A stretch of 10,967 bases of DNA from a virus. Shown here one piece after another: positions 1 through 10,967 of the stretch. The stretch spans positions 1 to 10,967 of the IMG/VR virus record IMGVR_UViG_3300045988_159075. One strand, written 5' to 3'. Within the stretch, counting starts at the first letter, position 1; the number at the start of each line of letters is the position of its first letter. The notes below the pieces were generated by a model. That model was given only the letters and a program-made list of their open reading frames with translations, was not told the DNA's origin and ran no database searches. The position numbers and the translations under genes were made by a program.

Positions 1-66
1 TATTTCTTAATACCTCATACGGGTAGTTATATTTCTTAATACCTCATACGGGTAGGTAGGGTAGGT
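1..66. repeat. Tandem direct repeats of a 29-bp unit (ATTTCTTAATACCTCATACGGGTAGTTAT), 2 copies, decaying into GGTAG micro-repeats.
   Basis: Copy 1 at 2-30 and copy 2 at 31-59 (period 29). The second copy ends ...CGGGTAGGTAGGGTAGGTAC, i.e. GGTAG x3-4. The same unit makes up the last 80 nt of the window. Confidence 0.9.
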
Positions 67-93
67 ACTATAGGCAAGATTTCCCCACGATAT

Positions 94-107
94 GTTTCAC
101 GTGAAAC
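94..107. repeat. Perfect 14-bp palindrome GTTTCACGTGAAAC at the centre of a larger imperfect palindrome (29-160).
   Basis: GTTTCACGTGAAAC equals its own reverse complement. It sits between the direct repeat units (left) and an inverted repeat unit (right). Confidence 0.9.
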
Positions 108-124
108 AACGCAACTATACACGA

Positions 125-160
125 CTATAGTAACTACCCGTATGAGGTATTAAGAAATAT
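125..160. repeat. Inverted copy of the 29-bp repeat unit plus the CTATAG box.
   Basis: 132-160 AACTACCCGTATGAGGTATTAAGAAATAT is the exact reverse complement of the 29-mer. 125-131 CTATAGT pairs with TACTATAG at 66-73. Confidence 0.9.
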
Positions 161-213
161 TTAAAATATTTTTTTAAAAAATACTTGACGTGTTTTATAT
201 AATAATATATAAT
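161..213 (+). promoter_or_regulatory. Near-consensus sigma-A/sigma-70 early promoter with an upstream A/T-rich UP-like element.
   Basis: -35 TTGACG at 185-190, a 17-nt spacer, then -10 TATAAT at 208-213. 161-184 (TTAAAATATTTTTTTAAAAAATAC) is an A/T tract in UP-element position. The first gene starts 48 nt downstream. Confidence 0.65.
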
Positions 214-260
214 TATAAATGTAGTGAGTTAGTACACTTAATTACTAACAAGGTGTTTAT

Positions 261-518
261 ATGAAAAGAAAAATTATTGAACAGATTAAAAAGATTGAAA
301 AAATGTATAAATGTAAAGTTATTACTATTATTGGTAATGTTTATATTGTATCTAAATCTGAAAGAACATTTGATAGTGATGATATTACTACCAATATTTA
401 TATTGGTGTAGTTATTGTTAAAGATAATGATTACCAATATAAATGTTTATATGCTTATACTTATTTAACTGATTTAAATGATTATAAAGTAAGAAAAGAA
501 ATAACTAAATTGCGTTAA
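261..518 (+). CDS. Hypothetical small early protein (85 aa), beta-rich and basic, in the position of a phi29 p6-like DNA-binding protein.
   Basis: ATG start with AAGGTG Shine-Dalgarno (250-255), TAA stop. First gene behind the early promoter. No recognisable motifs, so the function is assigned by position only. Confidence 0.6.
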   Translation: MKRKIIEQIKKIEKMYKCKVITIIGNVYIVSKSERTFDSDDITTNIYIGVVIVKDNDYQYKCLYAYTYLTDLNDYKVRKEITKLR

Positions 519-585
519 TTTGATTATCACTATATAATGGATTCAAGCGAACCGAACACGCTTAATTGTCGGTAAGGAGTATTAT

Positions 586-957
586 ATGCTTAACTTAGGA
601 AAGTTAAACGGTGGTTTTGATTCACCTTTTGAAAAGGTGGACGGTGAAAAGTTCAAATTTATTGACAGAAAAAAATTTAATGAATTTGGAAAAAAGTTTC
701 TTTTACTTGGAGTTTATCGAAGTGAGGGTAAACTAGGTGTACAGACGGTTTTTATTTGTTCAGAAATTAATGATTCAAGCAAGGGTTTCAGATTCTCTAC
801 AAATGACGTAAGTAAATTTAATGCGATTATGGCTGACAATGACATTATTACAGCCATTAAACAAAAAAAACTAACTATAACATTTGAAAAATATCATTCT
901 GATAAATGGAAAAAAGATTGCATAGGAACAACTTTTGAAGAAATAGAAATATTCTAA
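586..957 (+). CDS. Hypothetical early protein (123 aa), in the position and of the size of a phi29 p5-like ssDNA-binding protein.
   Basis: Perfect Shine-Dalgarno TAAGGAG at 573-579 with 6-nt spacing to ATG 586. TAA stop, followed by an intrinsic terminator. The functional guess rests on synteny (p6-p5-TP-DNAP) and size only. Confidence 0.65.
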   Translation: MLNLGKLNGGFDSPFEKVDGEKFKFIDRKKFNEFGKKFLLLGVYRSEGKLGVQTVFICSEINDSSKGFRFSTNDVSKFNAIMADNDIITAIKQKKLTITFEKYHSDKWKKDCIGTTFEEIEIF

Positions 958-976
958 GTTGTATATTAACTAAAAT

Positions 977-1003
977 AAAACCGTCTATTGATAGACGGTT
1001 TTT
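977..1003 (+). terminator. Rho-independent terminator between the second early gene and the putative terminal-protein gene.
   Basis: AAAACCGTCTA-TTGA-TAGACGGTTTTT: stem 981-987 pairs with 992-998, extended by AAAA/TTTT, followed by a T5 run at 999-1003. Confidence 0.75.
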
Positions 1004-1019
1004 AATATAGGATATAAAA

Positions 1020-1613
1020 ATGATAACAGGTTTTATGTTTTCACCTATTATAAAAGGTATATTAACTGAAAATATTTTTAGGGATACAGATATTAAAATA
1101 ATAAAGAAAATAATTAATAAATCTTTACAAGTTGCAAATAGACGGTTACAAAATATAGAAAAAAGTGGTGTGGTTAGTACTGCATATAAATCGTTAATAA
1201 GTGAACTACCAAAAACATCTAATAAATTTTCAAAATTAAGTATTGGCAAACTTGATTTATCAGATACAACCCAAAGAGTTAAAGCACTTGACACTTATTC
1301 TAAGGCATTATCATTTTTGAATAATAAAACATCTACTGTAAAAGGAAGTAAACAATTTATCAATAAATTAGCAAAGAAAAATAATTTTTCTTTTTCAGAT
1401 ACTAGTAAAATGATTGATGAGATTACTGACGAACGTGTTATTAACGGTAATTTGGTTATTAACAATTGGGATTCTGAACGTATAGCTAATATGATTAGCG
1501 AATATAGCGATAAAGATAATAAATATAATACTGATATTGATAAATATATACGTCAAAAAATAGATGAAAATTTAAGTAAACAAAATGACAACTTTGATAT
1601 TTGGGATTTGTAA
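1020..1613 (+). CDS. Putative terminal protein (197 aa). An alternative start is ATG 1035.
   Basis: The ORF lies immediately upstream of the protein-primed DNA polymerase gene (stop 1611-1613, polymerase ATG 1616), the conserved TP-DNAP arrangement of phi29-like phages. The protein is charged with a Ser/Thr/Tyr-rich C-terminal half. No direct sequence similarity was verified. Confidence 0.45.
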   Translation: MITGFMFSPIIKGILTENIFRDTDIKIIKKIINKSLQVANRRLQNIEKSGVVSTAYKSLISELPKTSNKFSKLSIGKLDLSDTTQRVKALDTYSKALSFLNNKTSTVKGSKQFINKLAKKNNFSFSDTSKMIDEITDERVINGNLVINNWDSERIANMISEYSDKDNKYNTDIDKYIRQKIDENLSKQNDNFDIWDL

Positions 1614-1615
1614 AA

Positions 1616-3685
1616 ATGACTTTTTATAATAAATCTAATTTTTTAGATAGTTTAAAGAAATTTATGGGTAGTATTCCTAAATGCAATTATTGTCAAGATA
1701 AAAAAATATGGTATTGTAATATACCGTGTTCTTTTGATATTGAAACATCGTCATTTTTTAACGAAAAAGGCGAAAAGCAAGCAATTATGTATATATGGCA
1801 ATTTGCTATTTTTGATAATGTTATTATAGGTAGAACATGGAATGATTTTTTTATTTTAATAGATTACTTAGTAAAATTTTACACTCTTAACGCTAATATT
1901 CGTTTAGTGTGTTATGTTCATAATTTATCATACGAATTTCAATTTTTAAGAAAACTTTTTGAATGGTGTGATATTTTCGCTACTGATGAACGAAAACCTT
2001 TATATGCTTGTACAAAAAACGGAATAGAATTTAAATGTTCTTACAGACTTAGCGGTTACTCGTTAGCGGTTTTAGCTAAAAATCTTACACGACATACAAT
2101 TAATAAAAAAGTAGGTGATTTGGATTACTCTTTAATACGTCATTCAGATACATTTATTAGTAATAATGAATTGGAATATTGTATTAACGATGTTCTAATA
2201 GTTACATCATATATTCAAGAGTGTATAGAAGATTATGGCGATATAACAAAAATTCCTTTAACTCAAACTGGAAAAGTTAGAAGATATGTTAGGGAATTAA
2301 CATTAAAAGATAATGATTATAAATATTTGATTTGTAAATTAGAACTAAAAACAATGGAATATTTACAGTTACGAAAAGCGTTTCAAGGCGGTTTTACTCA
2401 TGCTAATCCTATGTACGTATTACAAGAATGTAAAGATGTTACAAGTTTTGATTTTACATCATCATATCCTACTGTTATGACTTCTGAAAAGTTTCCTATG
2501 TCTAGAAGTAAATATATAGGAACTGTTAGCATTGATACATTAAAATATTATATGAAAAATTATTGTTGTTTATTTGATTTAAAATTAACTAATGTTGTAA
2601 GTAAATATAATTTTGAAAATGTAATAAGTTTTTCTAAATGTTTTAGAATTAAAAATTATATTCTTAATAATGGTCGTGTTTTTAGTGCAGAAGAATTATA
2701 TACAACTATAACTGAATTAGATTATGAAGTTATATGTAAATTTTATAATTTTGATAATATTGAGATTCATAATTTATACATATATGAAAAAAATTATTTA
2801 CCTAAATCGTTTATTATGGCGATACTTAAATTATATAACGATAAAACACAATTAAAGGGTGTAAAGGGAAAAGAAATAGAATATTTACATTCTAAAGAAA
2901 TGTTAAATAGTTGCTACGGCATGACAGTTACAGATTTACTTAATGATGAATACATTTATGAAAATGATGAATGGAGTACTAAAGAAAGTAATATAGATAA
3001 TGCTATAGAATATTATAATAAAGATAAAAACAGATTTTTATTTTATCCGTGGGGAGTATGGGTAACTGCTTACGCTAGAAGAAATTTATTTACAGGAATC
3101 TTTGAATGTAAAAATGATTATATTTATGCCGATACCGATAGCATTAAAATCTTTAACGCTGATAAACATAAAAACTACATTAATAATTATAATACAATGA
3201 TTAAAAATAAATTAAAGGCAATGTGTAATCATTATAAAATTGATTTTGATTTATGTAGACCAAAAACTAAATATGGCGTTGAAAAAATTTTAGGTATTTG
3301 GGATTTTGACGGTAAATATAAAATATTTAAGTCATTAGGCGCAAAACGATATATGATTTATACAGATGATAATATATTAAGTATTACCGTTAGCGGAGTT
3401 AATAAAAAATTTGCAGTTCCTTATCTGATGAAAAAATATAATAATGATATTGAAAAAATATTTAGTGTTTTTGATGATTCGTTAGTATTTCCTAAAGGTA
3501 CTAACGGAAAAAAAGTATTAACATATATTGATTCAGAACAAAAAGGAATAGTTAAAGATTATTTAGGAAATGTTAAAGAATATGATGAAAAATCATCTAT
3601 TTTTATGGAAGATACAGAATATAATCTAAATATTGCTTGTGAATATTTAGATTTTATATTAAAATTAAATAAAAGGTGTGTATAA
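1616..3685 (+). CDS. Protein-primed family B DNA polymerase (689 aa from ATG 1616; the ORF track extends to TTG 1601).
   Basis: Exo I SFDIETS (D-x-E), Exo III YCINDVLIV, YxGG as FQGGF, motif A FDFTSSYPTV (Dx2SxYP), motif B KEMLNSCYGMT (Kx3NSxYG), motif C YADTDSI (YxDTDS), and KxY as GAKRYMIY. These all match the phi29 polymerase motif order. The true start is probably ATG 1616, just after the upstream gene's stop. Confidence 0.93.
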   Translation: MTFYNKSNFLDSLKKFMGSIPKCNYCQDKKIWYCNIPCSFDIETSSFFNEKGEKQAIMYIWQFAIFDNVIIGRTWNDFFILIDYLVKFYTLNANIRLVCYVHNLSYEFQFLRKLFEWCDIFATDERKPLYACTKNGIEFKCSYRLSGYSLAVLAKNLTRHTINKKVGDLDYSLIRHSDTFISNNELEYCINDVLIVTSYIQECIEDYGDITKIPLTQTGKVRRYVRELTLKDNDYKYLICKLELKTMEYLQLRKAFQGGFTHANPMYVLQECKDVTSFDFTSSYPTVMTSEKFPMSRSKYIGTVSIDTLKYYMKNYCCLFDLKLTNVVSKYNFENVISFSKCFRIKNYILNNGRVFSAEELYTTITELDYEVICKFYNFDNIEIHNLYIYEKNYLPKSFIMAILKLYNDKTQLKGVKGKEIEYLHSKEMLNSCYGMTVTDLLNDEYIYENDEWSTKESNIDNAIEYYNKDKNRFLFYPWGVWVTAYARRNLFTGIFECKNDYIYADTDSIKIFNADKHKNYINNYNTMIKNKLKAMCNHYKIDFDLCRPKTKYGVEKILGIWDFDGKYKIFKSLGAKRYMIYTDDNILSITVSGVNKKFAVPYLMKKYNNDIEKIFSVFDDSLVFPKGTNGKKVLTYIDSEQKGIVKDYLGNVKEYDEKSSIFMEDTEYNLNIACEYLDFILKLNKRCV

Positions 3686-3689
3686 TTAT

Positions 3690-3881
3690 ATGAATAAGAA
3701 TAAAACTAGGGTATGTATTTTTATCGACAAAAAACTAAATGAACGGTTCAAGGAAAAATATCCATTGATGTTTTCAAGATATGTTGAAAAATGTATAAAA
3801 GACGCATTATGTGATAAAAGTAAAGTGTTGGATTCTGTAGAAAAAAAAGAACGGTTAAATATTTTTAATATAGGTTTATAA
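3690..3881 (+). CDS. Small ribbon-helix-helix-like DNA-binding protein (63 aa), a putative transcriptional regulator.
   Basis: N-terminal beta-strand (TRVCIFIDKK) followed by two helices (LNERFKEKYP / SRYVEKCIKDAL), typical of the CopG/Arc/MetJ fold. ATG 3690 lies behind AAAGGTG; the track's GTG 3678 start is less likely. TAA stop abuts the next ATG. Confidence 0.5.
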   Translation: MNKNKTRVCIFIDKKLNERFKEKYPLMFSRYVEKCIKDALCDKSKVLDSVEKKERLNIFNIGL

Positions 3882-4082
3882 ATGATTAAAAAGTTTGAAG
3901 TTTGTAGAATTAAGTCGTTTATATATCTTATTGAAGTTTATAATACAAATACTAGAAAAATAAAATATATTACCTCTATAGGTAAAAAAATTAAAGTTGA
4001 TTATGAACTTAATCCAGAAAGTAATAATATTATTAAATGTTATGATAATCTAAAGGAAGCGTTATCTGATTATGAAAAATAA
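3882..4082 (+). CDS. Hypothetical protein (66 aa), translationally coupled on both sides.
   Basis: Its ATG sits immediately after the upstream TAA (TAAATG). Its 3' end overlaps the ATPase start by 11 nt. No recognisable motifs. Confidence 0.45.
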   Translation: MIKKFEVCRIKSFIYLIEVYNTNTRKIKYITSIGKKIKVDYELNPESNNIIKCYDNLKEALSDYEK

Positions 4083-5169
4083 ATATTATAGTCTTTCAAA
4101 TATATTAAAAGAAAATTGTGATTATAATTTAATCATCGGTGAGAGGTCTAACGGTAAAACATACGCTTGTTTAATCCACGCTATAGAGGATTATATTAAA
4201 AATGGTAATGCAAGCGCATATATCAGACGTTGGAAAGAAGATATACAAGGAAAACGTGCTGAAACTATATTTAGTAGTGTAAATGAAAACAATGTTATAT
4301 CACAAATTACTAACGGTGAATACGATAATGTTATTTATTATAGGGGAAAATTTTTTCTTGCGCTATATGACAATGAAACCCATAAAATGCAATCAAGTAA
4401 AAAGCCCTTTTGTTATGCGTTTTCATTATCTGATGTAGAACATGATAAAAGCACATCATATCCGACAATAAAAAATATAATTTTTGATGAATTTATAACA
4501 CGTCAATATTATTTACCTAATGAATTTGTTATTTTTATGAATGTTTTAAGTACTATTATTAGAGATAAAAAAGATGTTAAAATTTTTATGTTGGGTAATA
4601 CTGTTAATAAATTTTGCCCTTATTTTGATGAAATGGGATTGATAAATATTCAAACGCAAAAACAGGGAACTATTGATGTTTATAGATATGGTGAAAATAC
4701 ATTAACTCTAGCAGTTGAATATTGCGGAACAGTAAACAAGAAAAAAGATAGTAACAAATATTTCGCTTTTAACAATCCTAGATTGAATATGATAACTAAC
4801 GGTGCTTGGGAATTAGCAATTTATCCCCATTTATCCCAAGGTCAAAAGATAAATAATAAAGATATTATTTTTCATTTTAATATATCTTTTGCCAATAAAA
4901 ATATTCAAGGTGATATTGTCGAAAATAATGACGGTTATTTTTTATTTTTTCATTATAGAACTAGTGAAATTAAAGATAATGAACTTTTATACACTCTTAA
5001 TTATACAACAAAACCGAATGTACGAAAATCATTTCTTTATAAAACAGATAAAATAGACATTAATATTTGCCGACTATTTCAGATAAGAAAAGTTTTTTAT
5101 CAATCAAATGATATCGGCGAAATTATTAAAAATTACTTGGGTGAATGTGTAAAAAATAATATAATGTGA
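4072..5169 (+). CDS. DNA encapsidation ATPase (phi29 gp16-like), 365 aa.
   Basis: Walker A IIGERSNGKTYA. Blocks YIRRWKEDI, IIFDEFITRQYYLPNEF and KIFMLGNTVNKFCPYF parallel the remembered phi29 gp16 segments VIGARGIGKSYA / YVRRYKPEL / IVFDEFIRE...IPNE / CICLSNAVSVVNPYF. AAAGGAAG Shine-Dalgarno. TGA stop. Confidence 0.85.
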   Translation: MKNKYYSLSNILKENCDYNLIIGERSNGKTYACLIHAIEDYIKNGNASAYIRRWKEDIQGKRAETIFSSVNENNVISQITNGEYDNVIYYRGKFFLALYDNETHKMQSSKKPFCYAFSLSDVEHDKSTSYPTIKNIIFDEFITRQYYLPNEFVIFMNVLSTIIRDKKDVKIFMLGNTVNKFCPYFDEMGLINIQTQKQGTIDVYRYGENTLTLAVEYCGTVNKKKDSNKYFAFNNPRLNMITNGAWELAIYPHLSQGQKINNKDIIFHFNISFANKNIQGDIVENNDGYFLFFHYRTSEIKDNELLYTLNYTTKPNVRKSFLYKTDKIDINICRLFQIRKVFYQSNDIGEIIKNYLGECVKNNIM

Positions 5170-5192
5170 TATAATTATGAATGGAGTAAAAT

Positions 5193-6257
5193 ATGAAAAA
5201 ACAAATTAATTATGATAACGCAAAAAAATACTTATTTGAAAAAGATATTTTCATTAATAATTATATTGCGTATATGTTTGACAGAACCCAAAAAATGTTT
5301 AAATATGAAAATTTACCCGAATCAATACCGCAAAGAATACTTGAATATATGTTACAGAAAAATGGCAATGTCTTTATTACCAAGGTTAACGGTAAATTAT
5401 ATGCTTTTAATGGTGGTTTGGGTGGTGTACCTAACGAATATTACGAACCGACAATTTACACGGTAACAAATCCATATCTTGAAATATCTGAAAATTATAA
5501 AATTGATATTGACGGCATATTGTTTAGAAATGATTCTATGATGATAGGATTATTGCCGATATTTACAAAATCCGCCTTTATGAATTGCGATTGTGAAATT
5601 ACATTGAATATGTTATCAATTCTTTTTAGAGTTCAATATATGCTGACTGCTAGCGATGATAAAAGTAAAACAAGTGCCGAAATGTTTATGCAGAAGTTAA
5701 AGAATGGTGATATGTCTGTTGTTGCAGATTCACAATTTTTTGAAGGTGTAAAACTTCAATCTTATAACGGAAGTGAGCATATTATTGAGCAGATGATAGG
5801 ATTATCTCAATACATCAAGGCTAGCGCATTGAACGATATAGGATTAAACGCTAATTTTATTATGAAAAAAGAGCGGTTAATCACAAGTGAAATAAATGTT
5901 AATGAAAGTGCATTACTACCGTTTATTGAAAATATGCTTGAAGAGCGAAAAAAAGCGATTGAAAAAATAAATGCCATGTTTGGAACAGATATAAAAGTTG
6001 AATTATCGTGTGTATGGAATGAGCAAGTAAAAACACATGAGGAAAATATTATTGAAGAAAATAATAAAATTGAAGATTCAGAAAAGACTGATGAAGATTC
6101 AGAAAAGACTGATGAAGATTCAGAAAAGACTGATGAAGATTCAGAAAAGACTGATGAAGATTCAGAAAAGACTGATGAAGATTCAGAAAAGACTGATGAA
6201 GATTCAGAAAAGACTGATGAAGATTCTAAACGAAAAGGCGGTAAAAATGACATATAA
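5193..6257 (+). CDS. Portal/head-tail connector protein (phi29 gp10-like) with a C-terminal 7x DSEKTDE acidic tandem repeat.
   Basis: YENLPESIPQRILEYMLQKNGNVF...NGGLGG and NANFIMKKERLITSEINVNESAL parallel remembered phi29 gp10 WENLPPTINPSFLEKS...CNGAL and [21 protein letters not shown]. GGAG Shine-Dalgarno 6 nt before the ATG. The acidic C-terminus resembles that of phi29 gp10. Confidence 0.8.
   Translation: MKKQINYDNAKKYLFEKDIFINNYIAYMFDRTQKMFKYENLPESIPQRILEYMLQKNGNVFITKVNGKLYAFNGGLGGVPNEYYEPTIYTVTNPYLEISENYKIDIDGILFRNDSMMIGLLPIFTKSAFMNCDCEITLNMLSILFRVQYMLTASDDKSKTSAEMFMQKLKNGDMSVVADSQFFEGVKLQSYNGSEHIIEQMIGLSQYIKASALNDIGLNANFIMKKERLITSEINVNESALLPFIENMLEERKKAIEKINAMFGTDIKVELSCVWNEQVKTHEENIIEENNKIEDSEKTDEDSEKTDEDSEKTDEDSEKTDEDSEKTDEDSEKTDEDSEKTDEDSKRKGGKNDI
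6072..6226. repeat. Perfect 21-bp tandem repeat (GAAGATTCAGAAAAGACTGAT), about 7.4 copies, in frame within the portal gene's 3' end.
   Basis: Copies start at 6072, 6093, 6114, 6135, 6156, 6177 and 6198, with a partial copy at 6219-6226. No mismatches. The repeat encodes (E)DSEKTD heptads and leaves all three forward frames and the reverse strand open. Confidence 0.95.
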
Positions 6258-6834
6258 TAATTTATTTTCAAATACTGATGTTATATCAGCACTAAAAAAT
6301 GCTGATAATGTAAAATTTAATGAAATATTTGGTGAAAATTATGATTCAGTCATATTAGACGGCTATATTAAGTTTACTATGGGTGAATATGAATGCACTG
6401 ATAAAACAATTGAAAGTTTCAATAAACAAGGTATAGAAAATATTTGTAAATGGCTATGGCTAAAATATTATGACAGTTGGAAATCTTTGTTAAAAAGTTT
6501 AGCGGTTAGTTATGAAAATTCAGATAGTGAAAATGAAACTATTGAACATACTCAAAATATGCAGTCAACATCAGTATCAACTAGTACAGATACAAATAAA
6601 GTTTTTGCCTATGATAGCGAAACTGCTAGTGATAATACTTTGAATGATACAACTAATGATAATAACGGTACTAATAATTTAACCGAAAAAACAACAAGAA
6701 ATAAAACAGGATATAATTACGGTTCGTCATTATTTGATTTGATTAAAAAATACAATGATTTTCAAATTGAAAATACTTTCGTTGACATTATTTCAAAAGA
6801 TGTTATAATGTTTTTATGCCATACTATAATTTAG
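6247..6834 (+). CDS. Hypothetical morphogenesis-module protein (195 aa), possibly a collar, adaptor or scaffold protein.
   Basis: ATG 6247 preceded by AAAGGCGG. The portion of the track ORF upstream (6037-6246) is an out-of-frame read through the portal repeats. The C-terminal half is Ser/Thr/Asn/Asp-rich and low-complexity. TAG stop. It sits after the portal gene, where phi29 has the lower collar. Confidence 0.6.
   Translation: MTYNNLFSNTDVISALKNADNVKFNEIFGENYDSVILDGYIKFTMGEYECTDKTIESFNKQGIENICKWLWLKYYDSWKSLLKSLAVSYENSDSENETIEHTQNMQSTSVSTSTDTNKVFAYDSETASDNTLNDTTNDNNGTNNLTEKTTRNKTGYNYGSSLFDLIKKYNDFQIENTFVDIISKDVIMFLCHTII
6782..6809 (+). promoter_or_regulatory. Perfect-consensus sigma-A promoter with extended -10, the likely late (capsid/tail operon) promoter.
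   Basis: -35 TTGACA at 6782-6787, a 16-nt spacer, then TGtTATAAT at 6801-6809. It lies in the 3' end of the 195-aa ORF, 38 nt upstream of the small-peptide gene's start. Confidence 0.6.
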
Positions 6835-6846
6835 GAGATAAAAATC

Positions 6847-7029
6847 ATGGATGAAAAGAAAAAAACACAGATTAAAAACGCATTTACTACATTTGTCAAG
6901 GCGTTGATTCCCCCTATAATTGCGCTAATATCCGCTATCCTCACAACTATTGTAAGCGGTGATAATATAGCAGTTGCTACTTCAGTTGGAGCAGTTGCAG
7001 GATACGTCGCTAATAACGTTGTAGGATAA
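6847..7029 (+). CDS. Small hydrophobic glycine-zipper membrane peptide (60 aa), holin-like candidate.
   Basis: Strong Shine-Dalgarno AGGAGA 8 nt upstream of the ATG. Basic N-terminus MDEKKKTQIKNAF, then a hydrophobic segment, then a Gly/Ala/Val-rich segment (VATSVGAVAGYVANNVVG). TAA stop. Confidence 0.6.
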   Translation: MDEKKKTQIKNAFTTFVKALIPPIIALISAILTTIVSGDNIAVATSVGAVAGYVANNVVG

Positions 7030-7032
7030 ATT

Positions 7033-7197
7033 ATGGACAAATTATTCAAGACATTATTGAAAGTAGGAACAACAGTTGCAGCAGTTGTAATATCTAACGC
7101 TTGCGGAGTTGATAAAAACATGGCTATTGCAATCGGTTCTGTTGTAGGTTCTACCGTTAGCGGTACGTTTGATTTATCTATTAAAGATGGAAAGTAA
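7033..7197 (+). CDS. Paralogous small hydrophobic glycine-zipper peptide (54 aa).
   Basis: Same architecture (MDK..., two short hydrophobic Gly/Ala/Val segments AAVVISNACGV / AIAIGSVVGSTVSG). Same reading frame as the upstream peptide, one stop plus one codon apart. AGGAT Shine-Dalgarno. Confidence 0.55.
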   Translation: MDKLFKTLLKVGTTVAAVVISNACGVDKNMAIAIGSVVGSTVSGTFDLSIKDGK

Positions 7198-7202
7198 ATA
7201 AA

Positions 7203-8384
7203 ATGAAAGTTGAACAGATACATACAATTGTAAATGAAATAACAAAAGAATTGCTTGGCGAAACCGCTGTAGTAAATGAAGATTTGTCAAATATTGTTGA
7301 CATAGGCCAGACCTTATTTGATTCAACAAGCGTTGACAATTATGTTAAAACACTTTGCGACCATATCGGCAAAGTTGTTTTTGTTAACCGCTCATACGCT
7401 GGTAATGTTCCTAGCGTTTTAATGGACGGTTGGGAATACGGTTCGGTACTTGAAAAAATAAGTGCAGATATTCCCGAAGCAAAAGAAAATGAAACGTGGG
7501 AACTTACGAATGGTCAAAGTTACGATGTTAACGTGTTCTACAAGCCGACAGTTGCAACAAAGTTCTTCAATAAGAAAGTAACTTTTGAAATACCAATGTC
7601 ATTTACAGAAAAACAGGTTAAAGGTTCATTCAGTTCTGCTGAACAGATGAACGGTTTTCTGTCTATGATTCAGAACGCCGTTGAAAAGTCAATGACTGTT
7701 AAAATTGATTCTCTTATTATGAGAACAATCAACAATATGACGGCACAGACGGTTGTCAACGCTTTTGGAGTAGTTGACGCTGATACAGGCTATTCTGAAA
7801 AAAACAGTGTAAGGGCGGTTAACCTTTTGAAACAGTACAATGACAAGTTCGGCGGTGCATTGACCGCTGAAAAATGTTTGACAGACCCTGCATTTATCAG
7901 ATTTGCAACTTACACAATTTCATTGTATAGGGATAGACTTAGTAAAATATCTAACCTTTTCAATATTGGCGGTAAGTCAAGATTTACTGCAAATGATATG
8001 TTGCATACAGTTTTACTTGCGGATTTCAAGGCAAGCGCAACGGCGTATCTTGAAAGTGATACATTTCACAATGACCTTGTAAAGTTGCCTAATTCTGAAA
8101 CTGTACCGTATTGGCAGGGTAGCGGAACAAGTTACGGATTTGCGGATGTTTCTTCTATTGATGTTAAGACGCCGAACCTTAAGGCCGAAGGAACTGTTGA
8201 TGTGAAACTTAGCGGTATTTTAGGTGTTATGTTTGACCGGGACGCTTTGGGCGTTGCTAATCTTGACAGAAGAGTAACAACAAACTACAATGCAAAAGCA
8301 GAATTTTACAACAATTATTATAAATTTGATGCAGGTTATTTTAACGACACAAACGAAAACTTTATTGTATTCTTTGTAGCCTAA
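7203..8384 (+). CDS. Major capsid protein, phi29 gp8-like (HK97 fold), 393 aa, without a C-terminal BIG2 domain.
   Basis: DNYVKTLCDHIGKVVFV matches remembered gp8 NDFITSLVDRIGLVVIR. FSSAEQMNGFLSMIQNAVEKSMTVKIDSL matches [27 protein letters not shown]. Shorter than phi29 gp8 (448 aa). Followed by a strong terminator. Confidence 0.8.
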   Translation: MKVEQIHTIVNEITKELLGETAVVNEDLSNIVDIGQTLFDSTSVDNYVKTLCDHIGKVVFVNRSYAGNVPSVLMDGWEYGSVLEKISADIPEAKENETWELTNGQSYDVNVFYKPTVATKFFNKKVTFEIPMSFTEKQVKGSFSSAEQMNGFLSMIQNAVEKSMTVKIDSLIMRTINNMTAQTVVNAFGVVDADTGYSEKNSVRAVNLLKQYNDKFGGALTAEKCLTDPAFIRFATYTISLYRDRLSKISNLFNIGGKSRFTANDMLHTVLLADFKASATAYLESDTFHNDLVKLPNSETVPYWQGSGTSYGFADVSSIDVKTPNLKAEGTVDVKLSGILGVMFDRDALGVANLDRRVTTNYNAKAEFYNNYYKFDAGYFNDTNENFIVFFVA

Positions 8385-8404
8385 ATCAAGTTTATTAATT
8401 TGTA

Positions 8405-8434
8405 AGGGTTAGGTTTTCCTAACCCTATTTTTTT
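8405..8434 (+). terminator. Rho-independent terminator after the capsid gene.
   Basis: AGGGTTAGG (8405-8413), loop TTTT, CCTAACCCT (8418-8426), then a T7 run at 8428-8434. Confidence 0.85.
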
Positions 8435-8444
8435 AGGTATTAAA

Positions 8445-8876
8445 ATGAAAATTAATTTTTATAATTATACAGGTAAAAAAAATGTTATTCAAAAAACATT
8501 AGATAATCCGACGGAAAAAGATATTTTATTAAAAAATGATTTTTCAGAAATTGAAACATCAATTTTATTAAAAGATAATATATCTTTTAATTATTTGGAA
8601 TTACCTACATTAAAAAGATTTTATTTTATAAAAAACAAAACTATTTTAAGAACTGATTTAATACGAATTGATTTATCATTAGATGTATTAATGACTTATA
8701 AAGAAAATATATTAACATCAAAAGCAGTCATAATTGAAAGTGAAAATCCTAATATTAATGATATGACACATTCAACAAACAAAACAACAGAAGTAATAAA
8801 ATACGTATTTCCAAATAATCCGATAGATTACAATGGAAATATATCAATGGCTTGTATAAATGGGAGCATAGAATAA
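8445..8876 (+). CDS. Hypothetical protein (143 aa), possibly a neck or tail accessory protein.
   Basis: ATG 8445 just after the terminator. Its TAA stop overlaps the start of the tail gene (TAATG coupling). Confidence 0.55.
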   Translation: MKINFYNYTGKKNVIQKTLDNPTEKDILLKNDFSEIETSILLKDNISFNYLELPTLKRFYFIKNKTILRTDLIRIDLSLDVLMTYKENILTSKAVIIESENPNINDMTHSTNKTTEVIKYVFPNNPIDYNGNISMACINGSIE

Positions 8877-10897
8877 TGGCTAGAATACTTAGTATTAAAG
8901 TTGCTGATGATATTTTTAAAAATGGTACTGACGCATATATTAATTATAGTAGAAACGGATTTACAGGAAATATATCTACATCAAAAGAGGATACACTACC
9001 ATTATCAGCTTCTTTTGTACGTAATGACTATACACAAAATACTATCCCCGATTTAGGAATAGTCGTTAAAAACACTGATATAATCACAGATATATCAAAA
9101 ATGATTCTTAAAGGTGAGAATATCAATATTGAAAATATTACAACCGAGGATAAAATAACATCAACAGGAAGACATAGATTATTATTACATATACCCGAAA
9201 ATATAATTGTAAATCAAAATGCAACTATTACAATAAGCGGTGATTTTATTCAATATCCTGTTGAAAACCCTAAAATAACACCAACATATAATTTAACTAA
9301 TTGTTCAATATCACCACAACCAACAGAAATAAATAACGGTGATGAAATAACTTTTACAGTGTCTAAAAATAATGATACGGATATTTTTACAAACATACCT
9401 AATATTAACGGAAAAATTGACGGTGTAACATTTTCAAATGATTTTACATTAGATACAAATGGTAACTATATACTAACTAAACAATTTAATTTTACTGACG
9501 CTAACAATACTGAAATAACTATAAACGCCATTGCAAACACTATAGAAATTACACCGACAATAACAATTGAAGGTTCAACAGTCAAAATCCGCCCTAATAT
9601 TAGCGGCGGTGAATATGTAACTACATTAAAAAACGGTGTTGAATATTTAATTGAAACTGAAAGTGATAATCTAAACGGATATTTTTTTAAATCTATTCCT
9701 AAAATAATAGTTAAAATAAACGGTGTTTCAGAAACTATTAATATGTTAGACCAATATCCCGAAGCAACAAATAAAACTAAATATTATTTAGTGAAAACTT
9801 TTAATTTTAAATCTGAAAATGATACTGTAGATGTTATTGCGATAGCAACAGATACAATTATTATAGAACCAATATATAATATAGACCATTGTACAATAAA
9901 CCCAAAACCATTATTTATAAAACCTAAACAGGAATATACATTTAATGTAAAAGCCGATGAAGGATTTATATTTAAAACTACACCATATTTAAACCTTAAA
10001 TTAGACGGTTTAGAAAGTACAGTTACATTTGATAAAGTAGATGATTACACATTTACATTAACATATACATTTAATTTTATTTCTACAGGTTCAACAAGTA
10101 TAGAATTTAATTTATTCGCTAAATCTGAAAACAATCCGATAGCCCAAAAATACGGCTTTATAACATTATATAGCCCGACCACAAAAGAACTAATAGCAAT
10201 ATCAAGAAAAAGACTTCTAAAAGTTGCTAGTTCTAATGAAGGTTACGCGGATATTGATTTAGGGCAATATATTACTTCATTAAAAAGAATATTTTGTAAA
10301 ATTCCAACAGATGAATCTGAAAATGTTGTATTAGGTATTTTTAACACGGGTGTTTCTTGTAAATCAATACCAAATGACAATATAGAATTATCTTTCGGTG
10401 ATGTACAATGTAACGGTTATTATAATAATTCCCAAGATTTGACAGATACATCAATACAGATTTTATTACCATTTTGCAATGTAATTGATATTGAAACTAT
10501 TAATATTAATTCTAAAATTACTGTTAAAATGAATGTTAATGTTCTAAGTGGTAACGCAACAGTGCATATATATTCAGATGACATTTTAATAAAAACAGTT
10601 GATACAAATATTTCAATTAAAATACCATATACATTATATGGTCAAGTATCACAAGAATTAAGTGTACATAACCAAAGACAAAATGACAATGCGATATTTG
10701 AAATAATACCACAGATTATTGTATATGAAAAAATAAACAATAATAGTCATAATGTATATAATACTTCTAAATATGATTTAATTTCAAATGAAAAAGGCTT
10801 TTTCAGAATTGAGCATATAGAAATGAATATGAACATGAAAAGCGACGAATACGAATTAATAATAAATGAATTGAAAAACGGTTGTTATATTTCTTAA
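8876..10897 (+). CDS. Large tail/receptor-binding structural protein (673 aa from ATG 8876) with tandem Ig-like modules.
   Basis: ATG 8876 preceded by GGGAG at 9-nt spacing; the track's TTG 8852 start is an extension. Two clear ~90-aa repeats (ITPTYNLTNCSISPQP...EITFTV... and IEPIYNIDHCTINPKP...EYTFNV...) plus a third degenerate module. It is the only large ORF left for tail functions, and its TAA stop lies inside the terminal repeat array. Confidence 0.7.
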   Translation: MARILSIKVADDIFKNGTDAYINYSRNGFTGNISTSKEDTLPLSASFVRNDYTQNTIPDLGIVVKNTDIITDISKMILKGENINIENITTEDKITSTGRHRLLLHIPENIIVNQNATITISGDFIQYPVENPKITPTYNLTNCSISPQPTEINNGDEITFTVSKNNDTDIFTNIPNINGKIDGVTFSNDFTLDTNGNYILTKQFNFTDANNTEITINAIANTIEITPTITIEGSTVKIRPNISGGEYVTTLKNGVEYLIETESDNLNGYFFKSIPKIIVKINGVSETINMLDQYPEATNKTKYYLVKTFNFKSENDTVDVIAIATDTIIIEPIYNIDHCTINPKPLFIKPKQEYTFNVKADEGFIFKTTPYLNLKLDGLESTVTFDKVDDYTFTLTYTFNFISTGSTSIEFNLFAKSENNPIAQKYGFITLYSPTTKELIAISRKRLLKVASSNEGYADIDLGQYITSLKRIFCKIPTDESENVVLGIFNTGVSCKSIPNDNIELSFGDVQCNGYYNNSQDLTDTSIQILLPFCNVIDIETININSKITVKMNVNVLSGNATVHIYSDDILIKTVDTNISIKIPYTLYGQVSQELSVHNQRQNDNAIFEIIPQIIVYEKINNNSHNVYNTSKYDLISNEKGFFRIEHIEMNMNMKSDEYELIINELKNGCYIS

Positions 10898-10967
10898 TAC
10901 CTCATACGGGTAGTTATATTTCTTAATACCTCATACGGGTAGTTATATTTCTTAATACCTCATACGG
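10888..10967. repeat. 2.76 tandem copies of the same 29-bp unit; the last 51 nt are identical to window bases 1-51.
   Basis: Copies start at 10888, 10917 and 10946 (the last truncated by the window end). The array overlaps the tail gene's stop codon at 10895-10897. Confidence 0.9.

Follow-up and report, generated by a model that had tools for sequence, protein, structure and literature searches.

The closest described systems to the phage analysed here are the Salmonella phages astrithr, Astrid and assan (the Astrithrvirus group) and their relatives Acinetobacter phage Phanie and Pectobacterium phage DU_PP_III, which belong to cluster 23 of the phi29-related phages (PMC11476376). Our starting point was a contig of 10,967 nucleotides, hereafter the window. 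It shares with the Astrithrvirus group a genome size of about 11-12 kb and a gene order of small ORFs, a protein of about 200 aa, polymerase, gp16 ATPase, connector, capsid and tail. Its capsid protein is 58-62% identical to those of the group and its relatives (60-62% for Astrithrvirus and Phanie), and its polymerase 45%. Records of the group are linear and carry inverted terminal repeats (ITRs) with ends beginning GG or GGG, as does the element studied here. In contrast to the group, which has a G+C content of 37-40%, the element has 27% G+C, lacks the leftward gene block (all its genes lie on the + strand) as well as a recognisable right-end endolysin, and has an ITR of unrelated sequence, which contains a palindrome, GTTTCACGTGAAAC, that is absent from astrithr and Phanie.

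Bacillus phage phi29 (Salasmaviridae) is a more distant point of reference, with a 19.3-kb genome, a 6-nt ITR, a pRNA and a recognisable terminal protein (PMC11476376). It has in common with the element a polymerase of the protein-primed type, the gp16 ATPase, connector and capsid families, and a linear genome with ITRs and a reiterated terminal sequence. The element's ITR, however, measures 111 nt rather than 6, and neither a pRNA nor any other RNA in the window matched Rfam at E<=1. Since pRNA has been documented only for phi29 and related Bacillus phages (PMC11476376), it does not define the wider phi29-type group. A tRNA scan of the window found none.

Metagenomes of the human gut or mouth are the source of the phage. 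When the whole window was compared with GenBank phages by Megablast, no match was obtained, a connector-based scan of JGI metagenomes returned relatives only, and the host labels of contigs in metagenome-assembled genomes (Treponema, Bacilli, Enterousia, Christensenellaceae) were uninformative, all being mis-binned. We place the element in the known Astrithrvirus-like group as a new, low-GC member of human gut or oral origin. Two other assemblies of the same phage, L016 (ERZ951205) and L014 (ERZ946847), both generated by MEGAHIT at k127, were available for comparison and contributed gene calls. The genes and the promoter candidate are as follows.

185-213, + strand: early promoter candidate TTGACG-17-TATAAT, matching 11 of 12 consensus positions (consensus match only)
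1020-1613, + strand: terminal-protein candidate of 197 aa, directly upstream of the polymerase and in the same position as astrithr gp02
1616-3685, + strand: protein-primed family B DNA polymerase (PF03175, E=2e-15; PHROG 1907; start codon from the L016 gene call)
4072-5169, + strand: phi29 gp16-type DNA packaging ATPase (PF05894, E=1.8e-20; PHROG 2150)
5193-6257, + strand: head-tail connector (PF05352)
7203-8384, + strand: phi29-like major capsid protein (PF25622, E=5.8e-56)
8876-10897, + strand: tail or receptor-binding protein of 673 aa, the last gene (ORF list and L014 gene call)

Pfam and matching PHROGs identify the phi29-type virion and packaging set of gp16-type ATPase, connector and capsid. 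For the polymerase, phi29 DNA polymerase was the only match in the PDB (E=6e-9), with an alignment covering the palm through motif C, and the identity of 45% to the astrithr polymerase extends over the full length; the protein-primed polymerase proposed from the sequence alone is thereby confirmed. A pipolin or other circular element with a primer-independent PolB was considered and rejected on polymerase affinity and gene content: the polymerase groups with those of phi29 and astrithr, the other identifiable genes are all of phi29-type virion or packaging function, and Pfam and PHROG searches revealed no integrase or plasmid gene. The product of 1020-1613 is conserved and weakly homologous to astrithr gp02 (26% identity over 116 aa, E=1e-6), and its AlphaFold2 model is all-alpha with a pLDDT of 69. 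Profile searches against PDB and Pfam, as well as AlphaFold2 with Foldseek, yielded no significant match for it, and no sequence or fold similarity to the phi29 terminal protein (p3) was detectable; a p3-like protein has been reported in the Astrithrvirus-like cluster from HMM searches (PMC11476376). Its invariant residues S53, Y56, T104 and S105 are candidates for a covalent link to the DNA, should the 1020-1613 product be the terminal protein. The product of the last gene matched no family in Pfam or PHROG. Its stop codon falls in the first copy of a 29-nt repeat that dominates the ends of the window. These ends comprise the following features, in which U denotes the repeat unit and S the segment 50-130.

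1-49, + strand: spurious prefix composed of a complete U copy and U[1:20], the same sequence as 10917-10965
50-160, + strand: left ITR of 111 nt (computed length), at the start of L016, with its exact reverse complement at the end of L014
50-67, + strand: terminal reiteration, two copies of GGGTAGGTA (Tandem Repeats Finder: period 9, 2.0 copies)
94-107: perfect 14-nt palindrome GTTTCACGTGAAAC, lying within the ITR and present once in the window
131-159, - strand: inverted copy of U (U'), 100% complementary to U, in the innermost part of the left ITR
10888-10967, + strand: direct 29-nt array with U1 at 10888-10916, U2 at 10917-10945 and U3 at 10946-10967, the last cut by the contig end
10945 onward: right ITR, of which the window holds the first 23 nt only; the absent 88 nt comprise GTAGTTA and then 50-130 in reverse complement

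Positions 1-51 of the window are identical to 10917-10967. This observation, first made in a sequence-only reading, was reproduced by direct inspection and by exact comparison, in which the other exact overlap of prefix and suffix was of 22 nt only. The identity cannot be due to chance, and it exists only because both contig ends fall within copies of one repeat. Tandem Repeats Finder places three (3.0) copies of a 29-nt unit, U = TATTTCTTAATACCTCATACGGGTAGTTA, at 10880-10967, and further copies occupy 1-29 and 30-55 at the window start. The same reading had left the copy number ambiguous (3-5) and overlooked both the inverted copy at 131-159 and the palindrome at 94-107. The k=127 assembly contains exactly three direct copies at the right end and settles the number, as k exceeds the 91-nt periodic stretch. 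A simple test for direct repeats of >=20 nt, as applied to 'circular, complete' metagenomic contigs, would be satisfied by the window; unlike in genuine contigs with direct terminal repeats, however, the overlap sits in a tandem repeat adjoining an ITR.

The two k127 assemblies reveal where the genome ends. L016 corresponds to window positions 50-6181 with 100% identity over 6,132 nt, and its first base is window position 50 (5'-GGGTAGGTAGGGTAGG...). L014, a contig present in three samples, corresponds to 6133-10967 without a mismatch over 4,835 shared nt and reaches 88 nt past the window end, where it completes U3, continues with CTATAGTCG...CCTACCCTACCTACCC and stops. Its right end thus consists of three exact copies of U followed by the exact reverse complement of S, and its terminal extension, when reverse-complemented, matches the start of L016 exactly. 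The inner ends of both contigs, i.e. the end of L016 and the start of L014, lie inside a 21-nt tandem array in the connector gene (6071-6226, 7.4 copies by Tandem Repeats Finder), which encodes EDSEKTD repeats at the C-terminus of the connector and breaks k127 assemblies. The outer ends, in contrast, are not repeat breaks, since an ITR of 111 nt is shorter than k=127. Joined, L016 and L014 give a linear genome of 11,006 bp with a perfect 111-nt ITR, a structure that is invisible from the window alone, and the right side carries two additional tandem copies of the innermost 29 nt. On the left, the genome truly begins at window position 50, 5'-GGGTAGGTA GGGTAGGTA C..., and its true right end lies 88 nt past the last base of the window. 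All 49 56-mers starting at positions 1-49 are missing from this composite genome, and no other 56-mer of the window is; the spurious prefix meets the true left terminus via a 6-nt microhomology, GGGTAG (50-55).

Further assemblies bear on the same termini. Six contig ends, from five assemblies representing at least three related phages, carry the motif GGTAGGGTAGGT[AG]CTATAG at position 1-6; it is internal in the window only. In the collection blocks of two looked-up proteins, the longest contig per block was no more than the left fragment of about 6.1 kb in 53 of 56 cases and no more than the right fragment of about 4.9 kb in 44 of 47. A second break must therefore exist besides that in the 21-nt array, which argues against a circle, as a circle would yield a single contig at k=127. 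Logan k=31 contigs of a strain about 95% identical begin exactly k-1 = 30 nt inside the inner boundary of the ITR, as predicted for an ITR fork. Taken together, we consider it highly likely that the element is a linear phi29-type (Astrithrvirus-like) podophage of about 11,006 bp with 111-nt ITRs, and that the overlap of the window's ends is a by-product of assembly. Replication is presumably protein-primed from both ends. Sliding-back or jumping-back initiation needs a repeat at the extreme end, and by analogy with phi29 and adenovirus the 9-nt terminal reiteration may serve this mode of initiation.

The window's last k-mer occurs earlier (at 10884) at k up to 55 and not beyond, and 55 is likewise the limit for finding the window's first k-mer in the linear genome, so that both window boundaries coincide with branch points of a k=55 de Bruijn graph. 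Most likely, the 51-nt overlap stems from de Bruijn graph assembly at this k, both assembler and k being deduced; the FijiCOMP preprint (10.1101/540252) names neither for the window. By way of the GGGTAG homology, a junction edge would connect the left terminus with the subterminal 29-nt array; the assembly path would begin at the last array k-mer before the junction and halt on re-entering the array, giving an apparent terminal redundancy of 55 - 4 = 51 nt. At a physical end, where there is no competing path, an assembler would take any sequence that extends it. As to its source, we infer that a small number of snap-back or chimeric reads most probably created the junction, since ...CTACCC at the 3' end can fold onto the GGGTAG of a neighbouring repeat and then be extended; alternatively, it may have arisen by tip or gap closing in the assembler. 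The false join and the true end share GGGTAG only, as expected for snap-back or chimeric reads or for gap closing by the assembler. Collapse of the ITR alone was rejected as the cause of the circle: the linear genome has no forward-orientation k-mers joining U to S.

The junction could also be a real minor molecule beside the linear genome, either a snap-back hairpin or a circular by-product joined by microhomology, formed in vivo during strand-displacement replication, given that the 3'-terminal CTACCC is complementary to the GGGTAG of the subterminal repeats. An independent SPAdes contig, L101 (ERZ15609939), from a strain about 96% identical, ends in a similar junction with U[1:20] beside the terminal motif; its junction has GG where the adjacent repeat has GGG and is thus not an exact copy of that repeat. 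This type of junction therefore occurs in two strains and two data sets and is reproducible, which could point to a genuine minor molecule and not simply to an artefact. Adding one snap-back product of the right 3' end to the linear genome is enough to account for all window k-mers up to K=100, which fits snap-back reads as the source of an assembly by-product as well as a real molecule. When the last 139 nt at the right end are folded as DNA, the minimum-energy structure has CTACCC at the 3' terminus paired with GGGTAG in U2, but this fold is weak and no better than in shuffled sequence (z = -0.5). Moreover, MEGAHIT assemblies from at least three samples stop cleanly at the terminus, so that any junction molecule would be a small minority, and both junction-bearing contigs look SPAdes-type, which fits an assembler-dependent effect. 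We regard a real minor molecule as unlikely, and no function is implied for it. Exact-pattern scans of IMG/VR and JGI metagenomes for the junction as well as for the start of S gave no matches; the window's own record is evidently not searchable there.

The sequence-only reading had headlined the contig as circular or terminally redundant. On a rival model along these lines, the genome would be a real circle, circularly permuted or terminally redundant, and the linear-looking contigs would be artefacts. This model draws on the window's 51-nt direct overlap, which graph topology at k=55 explains, and is contradicted by identical assemblies that end at mirror-image termini within the supposed circle. 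The 127-mers of L014 that run from U2-U3 into the reverse complement of S are impossible in the window's circle, L014 stops at a defined base that is mirrored by the L016 start, and a mixture of the two orientations would interrupt contigs at U3 instead of after S. The true ends carry no direct repeat. Among 92 relatives in IMG/VR, ITRs are present in 65 (48 exact and 17 offset), or 65 of the 75 contigs of >=10 kb, and direct terminal repeats in none. The relatives' contigs share one common register without random permutation, the connector gene lying at about 5.2-6.4 kb in most of the ~11-kb contigs among those listed, and the cultured relatives Phanie (ITR of 171 nt) and astrithr (18 nt) were deposited as linear. 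Several relatives have sequencing adapters at both contig ends, indicating that assemblers do continue beyond the physical termini of these phages. In addition, the packaging ATPase is of the gp16 type, which handles unit-length DNA, and no separate terminase family was matched in Pfam and PHROG searches. A circular genome is accordingly extremely improbable. The earlier reading rightly saw a conflict between a direct overlap of the ends and a protein-primed polymerase, and one of its two explanations, that an assembler had joined the ends, is supported by the mirror-image termini, the relatives' ITRs and the k=55 branch points; the other, an unusual end structure, is unneeded, as the ends are ordinary 111-nt ITRs.

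Hardly any weight attaches to a longer, self-complementary ITR with hairpin-forming telomeres and termini at or beyond window position 30, with U[1:20] preceding S: L101 does end exactly 20 nt beyond the terminal motif, where a U copy begins, and with this 20-nt extension the outer 26 nt would pair with the inner 26 nt, but an ITR of 131 nt predicts k=127 contigs about 15 nt longer, whereas L014 and L016 stop at GGG/CCC, L105 (k141, both ends), L017 and L012 also stop within the GGTAGG motif, and the window's additional full upstream copy of U would be left unexplained.

For the linear genome with 111-nt ITRs, the palindrome offers a candidate for a control element. Only 0.04 chance occurrences of GTTTCACGTGAAAC are expected at up to two mismatches, and 33 of the 48 ITR-bearing relatives carry it no more than 400 nt from the ends. 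It is probably a binding site for a dimeric protein, a candidate for control of the origin or of the early promoter.

These results fix the true termini of the element as a 111-nt ITR with a 9-nt terminal reiteration. They also call for caution, as a direct-terminal-repeat test can be passed by a linear phage with ITRs whose contig lacks 88 nt at one end and carries 49 spurious bases at the other; the false circular call arises because tandem repeats adjoin the ITR, and contigs of this type will be mislabelled wherever a database assigns its labels from overlapping ends. Should the junction molecule, against our expectation, prove real, a recurrent hairpin or closed circle would mark a side pathway or end-repair pathway of very small phages. 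The Astrithrvirus-like group, among the smallest tailed phages, gains a low-GC human-associated member, and the palindrome, conserved in the ITRs across much of the family, provides a testable candidate control site.

The first 51 nt of the window are exactly identical to its last 51 nt, as the sequence-only reading had stated, and the sole other exact overlap between prefix and suffix is one of 22 nt. Both ends fall within a 29-nt unit, U = TATTTCTTAATACCTCATACGGGTAGTTA, which occurs in three direct copies and one inverted copy, the ambiguous count of three to five in that reading thus resolving to three; the inverted copy and a palindrome in spacer S, which separates the left copies from it, had been overlooked. 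The proposal that the genome is circular or terminally redundant does not hold, as two contigs of the same phage, L016 and L014, define a linear genome with inverted terminal repeats (ITRs). Within the contig the end identity is genuine, but the genome itself does not have it: that genome is linear with ordinary ITRs, and 88 nt of its right end are missing from the window.

Features of the window
1-58: two direct copies of U at the left end, the second departing from U after 26 nt
50-67: 9-nt direct reiteration, GGGTAGGTA twice, at the true 5' end
52-130: spacer S, 79 nt
94-107: perfect 14-nt palindrome GTTTCACGTGAAAC, within S
131-159: one inverted copy of U
185-213: near-consensus promoter candidate, following the palindrome-bearing S
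1020-1613, plus strand: terminal-protein candidate ORF, at the position expected for that gene
6071-6226, plus strand: perfect 21-nt tandem array, 7.4 copies, encoding (EDSEKTD)n at the connector C-terminus
10888-10967: three direct copies of U at the right end (U1 to U3), the third truncated by the contig end

Exact-protein look-ups showed that many assemblies of gut metagenomes from PRJNA217052 (Fiji cohort) contain the same phage. L016 (ERZ951205, MEGAHIT k127) matches window positions 50-6181 with 0 mismatches and starts, with 5'-GGGTAGGTAGGGTAGGTACTATAGG, exactly at position 50. L014 (ERZ946847, MEGAHIT k127), from a different sample and identical in 3 samples, matches 6133-10967 with 0 mismatches and extends 88 nt past the window, through the rest of the third U and then CTATAGTCG...GTTTCACGTGAAAC...CCTATAGTACCTACCCTACCTACCC, before it ends. 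The tail of L014 and the start of L016 are exact reverse complements, and the two contigs joined give a linear genome of 11,006 bp whose 111-nt ITR is perfect. Since this ITR is shorter than k = 127, the contigs do not end here at repeat breaks; their ends are physical, mirror each other and come from different samples. These two assemblies break within the 21-nt array, which must therefore have about 7 copies or more. The longest contig per collection block, for the two proteins looked up, is a ~6.1-kb left piece in 53 of 56 blocks and a ~4.9-kb right piece in 44 of 47; as most blocks hold one piece only, the termini must break too, besides the array in the connector gene. A circle was rejected, as its k = 127 assembly should yield one contig and L014 contains 127-mers (U2-U3 followed by the reverse complement of S) that are impossible in the window's circle.

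Among related phages, the terminal motif GGTAGGGTAGGT[AG]CTATAG lies at position 1-6 of six contig ends in five assemblies (L012, L014, L016, L017 and, at both ends, L105) and is internal in the window alone; L012, L017 and L105 share the GGTAGG-type end motif with slightly different repeat numbers. Among 92 IMG/VR relatives, 48 carry exact terminal ITRs (50-1,050 nt, median 210), 17 have ITRs with one trimmed end and none has a direct terminal repeat; ITRs are present in 65 of the 75 contigs that reach 10 kb. In most of the listed relative contigs of ~11 kb, the connector gene falls at ~5.2-6.4 kb; their register is fixed, as opposed to randomly permuted. In a ~95% strain, the Logan contigs (k = 31) begin exactly 30 nt (k-1) within the inner boundary of the ITR, as expected for an ITR fork. 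In six IMG/VR relatives (L010, L027, L056, L058, L087, L098), both ends of the contig carry Illumina or Nextera adapter sequence, which inflates their apparent ITR length and shows that assemblies extend beyond the physical termini. In the closest IMG/VR relative, a 47-nt unit is tandemly repeated at least 3-4 times at the left ITR boundary (L012 1-140, L018 1-170), whereas the 29-nt array of the window phage lies at the right; expansion of ITR-proximal segments recurs, with the sides differing. The reiteration at 50-67 appears, by analogy, to be of the kind used by sliding-back or jumping-back initiation.

The window departs from the linear genome in its first 49 nt only, the 56-mers starting at 1-49 being the sole ones absent there. 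The largest k at which its last k-mer has already been seen earlier is 55 (at 10884, the start of a 91-nt perfectly periodic stretch), and the largest k at which its first k-mer is still in the linear genome is also 55, so that both boundaries point to k = 55. The contig would begin at the final array node preceding a junction edge and halt on array re-entry four nodes earlier, leaving an overlap of 55 - 4 = 51 nt. This junction couples U[1:20] to the terminus, with GGGTAG alone shared, and because no linear-genome k-mer supplies the join, reads or an assembler join are required. Were the right 3' end (...CTACCC-3') to snap back onto the GGGTAG of the adjacent U and be extended, the exact junction sequence would result; the linear genome and this product together contain all k-mers of the window up to K = 100. 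Folded at minimum energy, the last 139 nt of the right end pair their 3' CTACCC with U2, though this fold is no better than that of shuffled sequence. We infer that the junction arose by rare extension at the physical end, followed because that end offers no competing path.

The junction is reproducible: an independent SPAdes contig of a ~96% strain, L101 (ERZ15609939), goes on for 20 nt beyond the terminal motif, into U[1:20] in reverse complement. The junction is either structure-driven and kept by some assemblers or a real minor molecule. The latter is improbable, and the clean MEGAHIT ends mean that a junction-bearing form cannot be the main one.

The window, with all genes on the plus strand, encodes a phi29-type podophage set: PolB of the protein-primed type (PF03175), gp16 packaging ATPase (PF05894), connector (PF05352) and phi29-like capsid protein (PF25622). 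That the polymerase is of the protein-primed kind, as the sequence-only reading assumed, is upheld by PF03175, by phi29 DNA polymerase as the sole PDB relative and by 45% identity to the Astrithrvirus-group polymerase. This group (~11.5 kb; compared here were Salmonella astrithr, Astrid and assan, Acinetobacter Phanie and Pectobacterium DU_PP_III), whose phages a 2024 review (PMC11476376) treats as relatives of phi29 with Gram-negative hosts, contains the nearest cultured phages; gene order is shared and the capsid proteins are 58-62% identical. The group was already known, and the element adds a new member to it. The ITRs of Phanie (171 nt) and astrithr (18 nt) differ in length, and both begin with GG. 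Unlike these two, the window phage has no leftward gene block after the tail gene and no recognisable endolysin 3' of it (10898-10967 plus the right end); its right ITR directly adjoins the tail gene. Neither pRNA nor tRNA was found in the window.

The ORF at 1020-1613 is conserved and weakly homologous to astrithr gp02. Its product is predicted to be all-alpha (AlphaFold2, pLDDT 69), and no similarity to the phi29 terminal protein was detected. S53, Y56, T104 and S105 stay invariant as far as the distant homologues in astrithr and Phanie, and are candidate priming residues of this putative terminal protein.

Of the 48 ITR-bearing relatives, 33 have the palindrome GTTTCACGTGAAAC within or next to their ITRs, frequently as a pair spaced 42 nt apart; phages that carry it include L002, L004, L005, L012, L017, L105 and L115, among many more, and L115 holds 14 copies genome-wide. 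Outside the palindrome, the ITR is not conserved among relatives. A conserved dimeric DNA-binding protein probably binds to the palindrome. Between polymerase and ATPase, the ORF at 3690-3881 (63 aa; no family match) may, judging by its pattern, encode a strand-helix-helix (ribbon-helix-helix-like) DNA binder; that its product binds the palindrome is only a guess. For circularity calls, the lesson is that the end overlap of a contig was here not a property of the genome; the other point of note is the conserved ITR palindrome.
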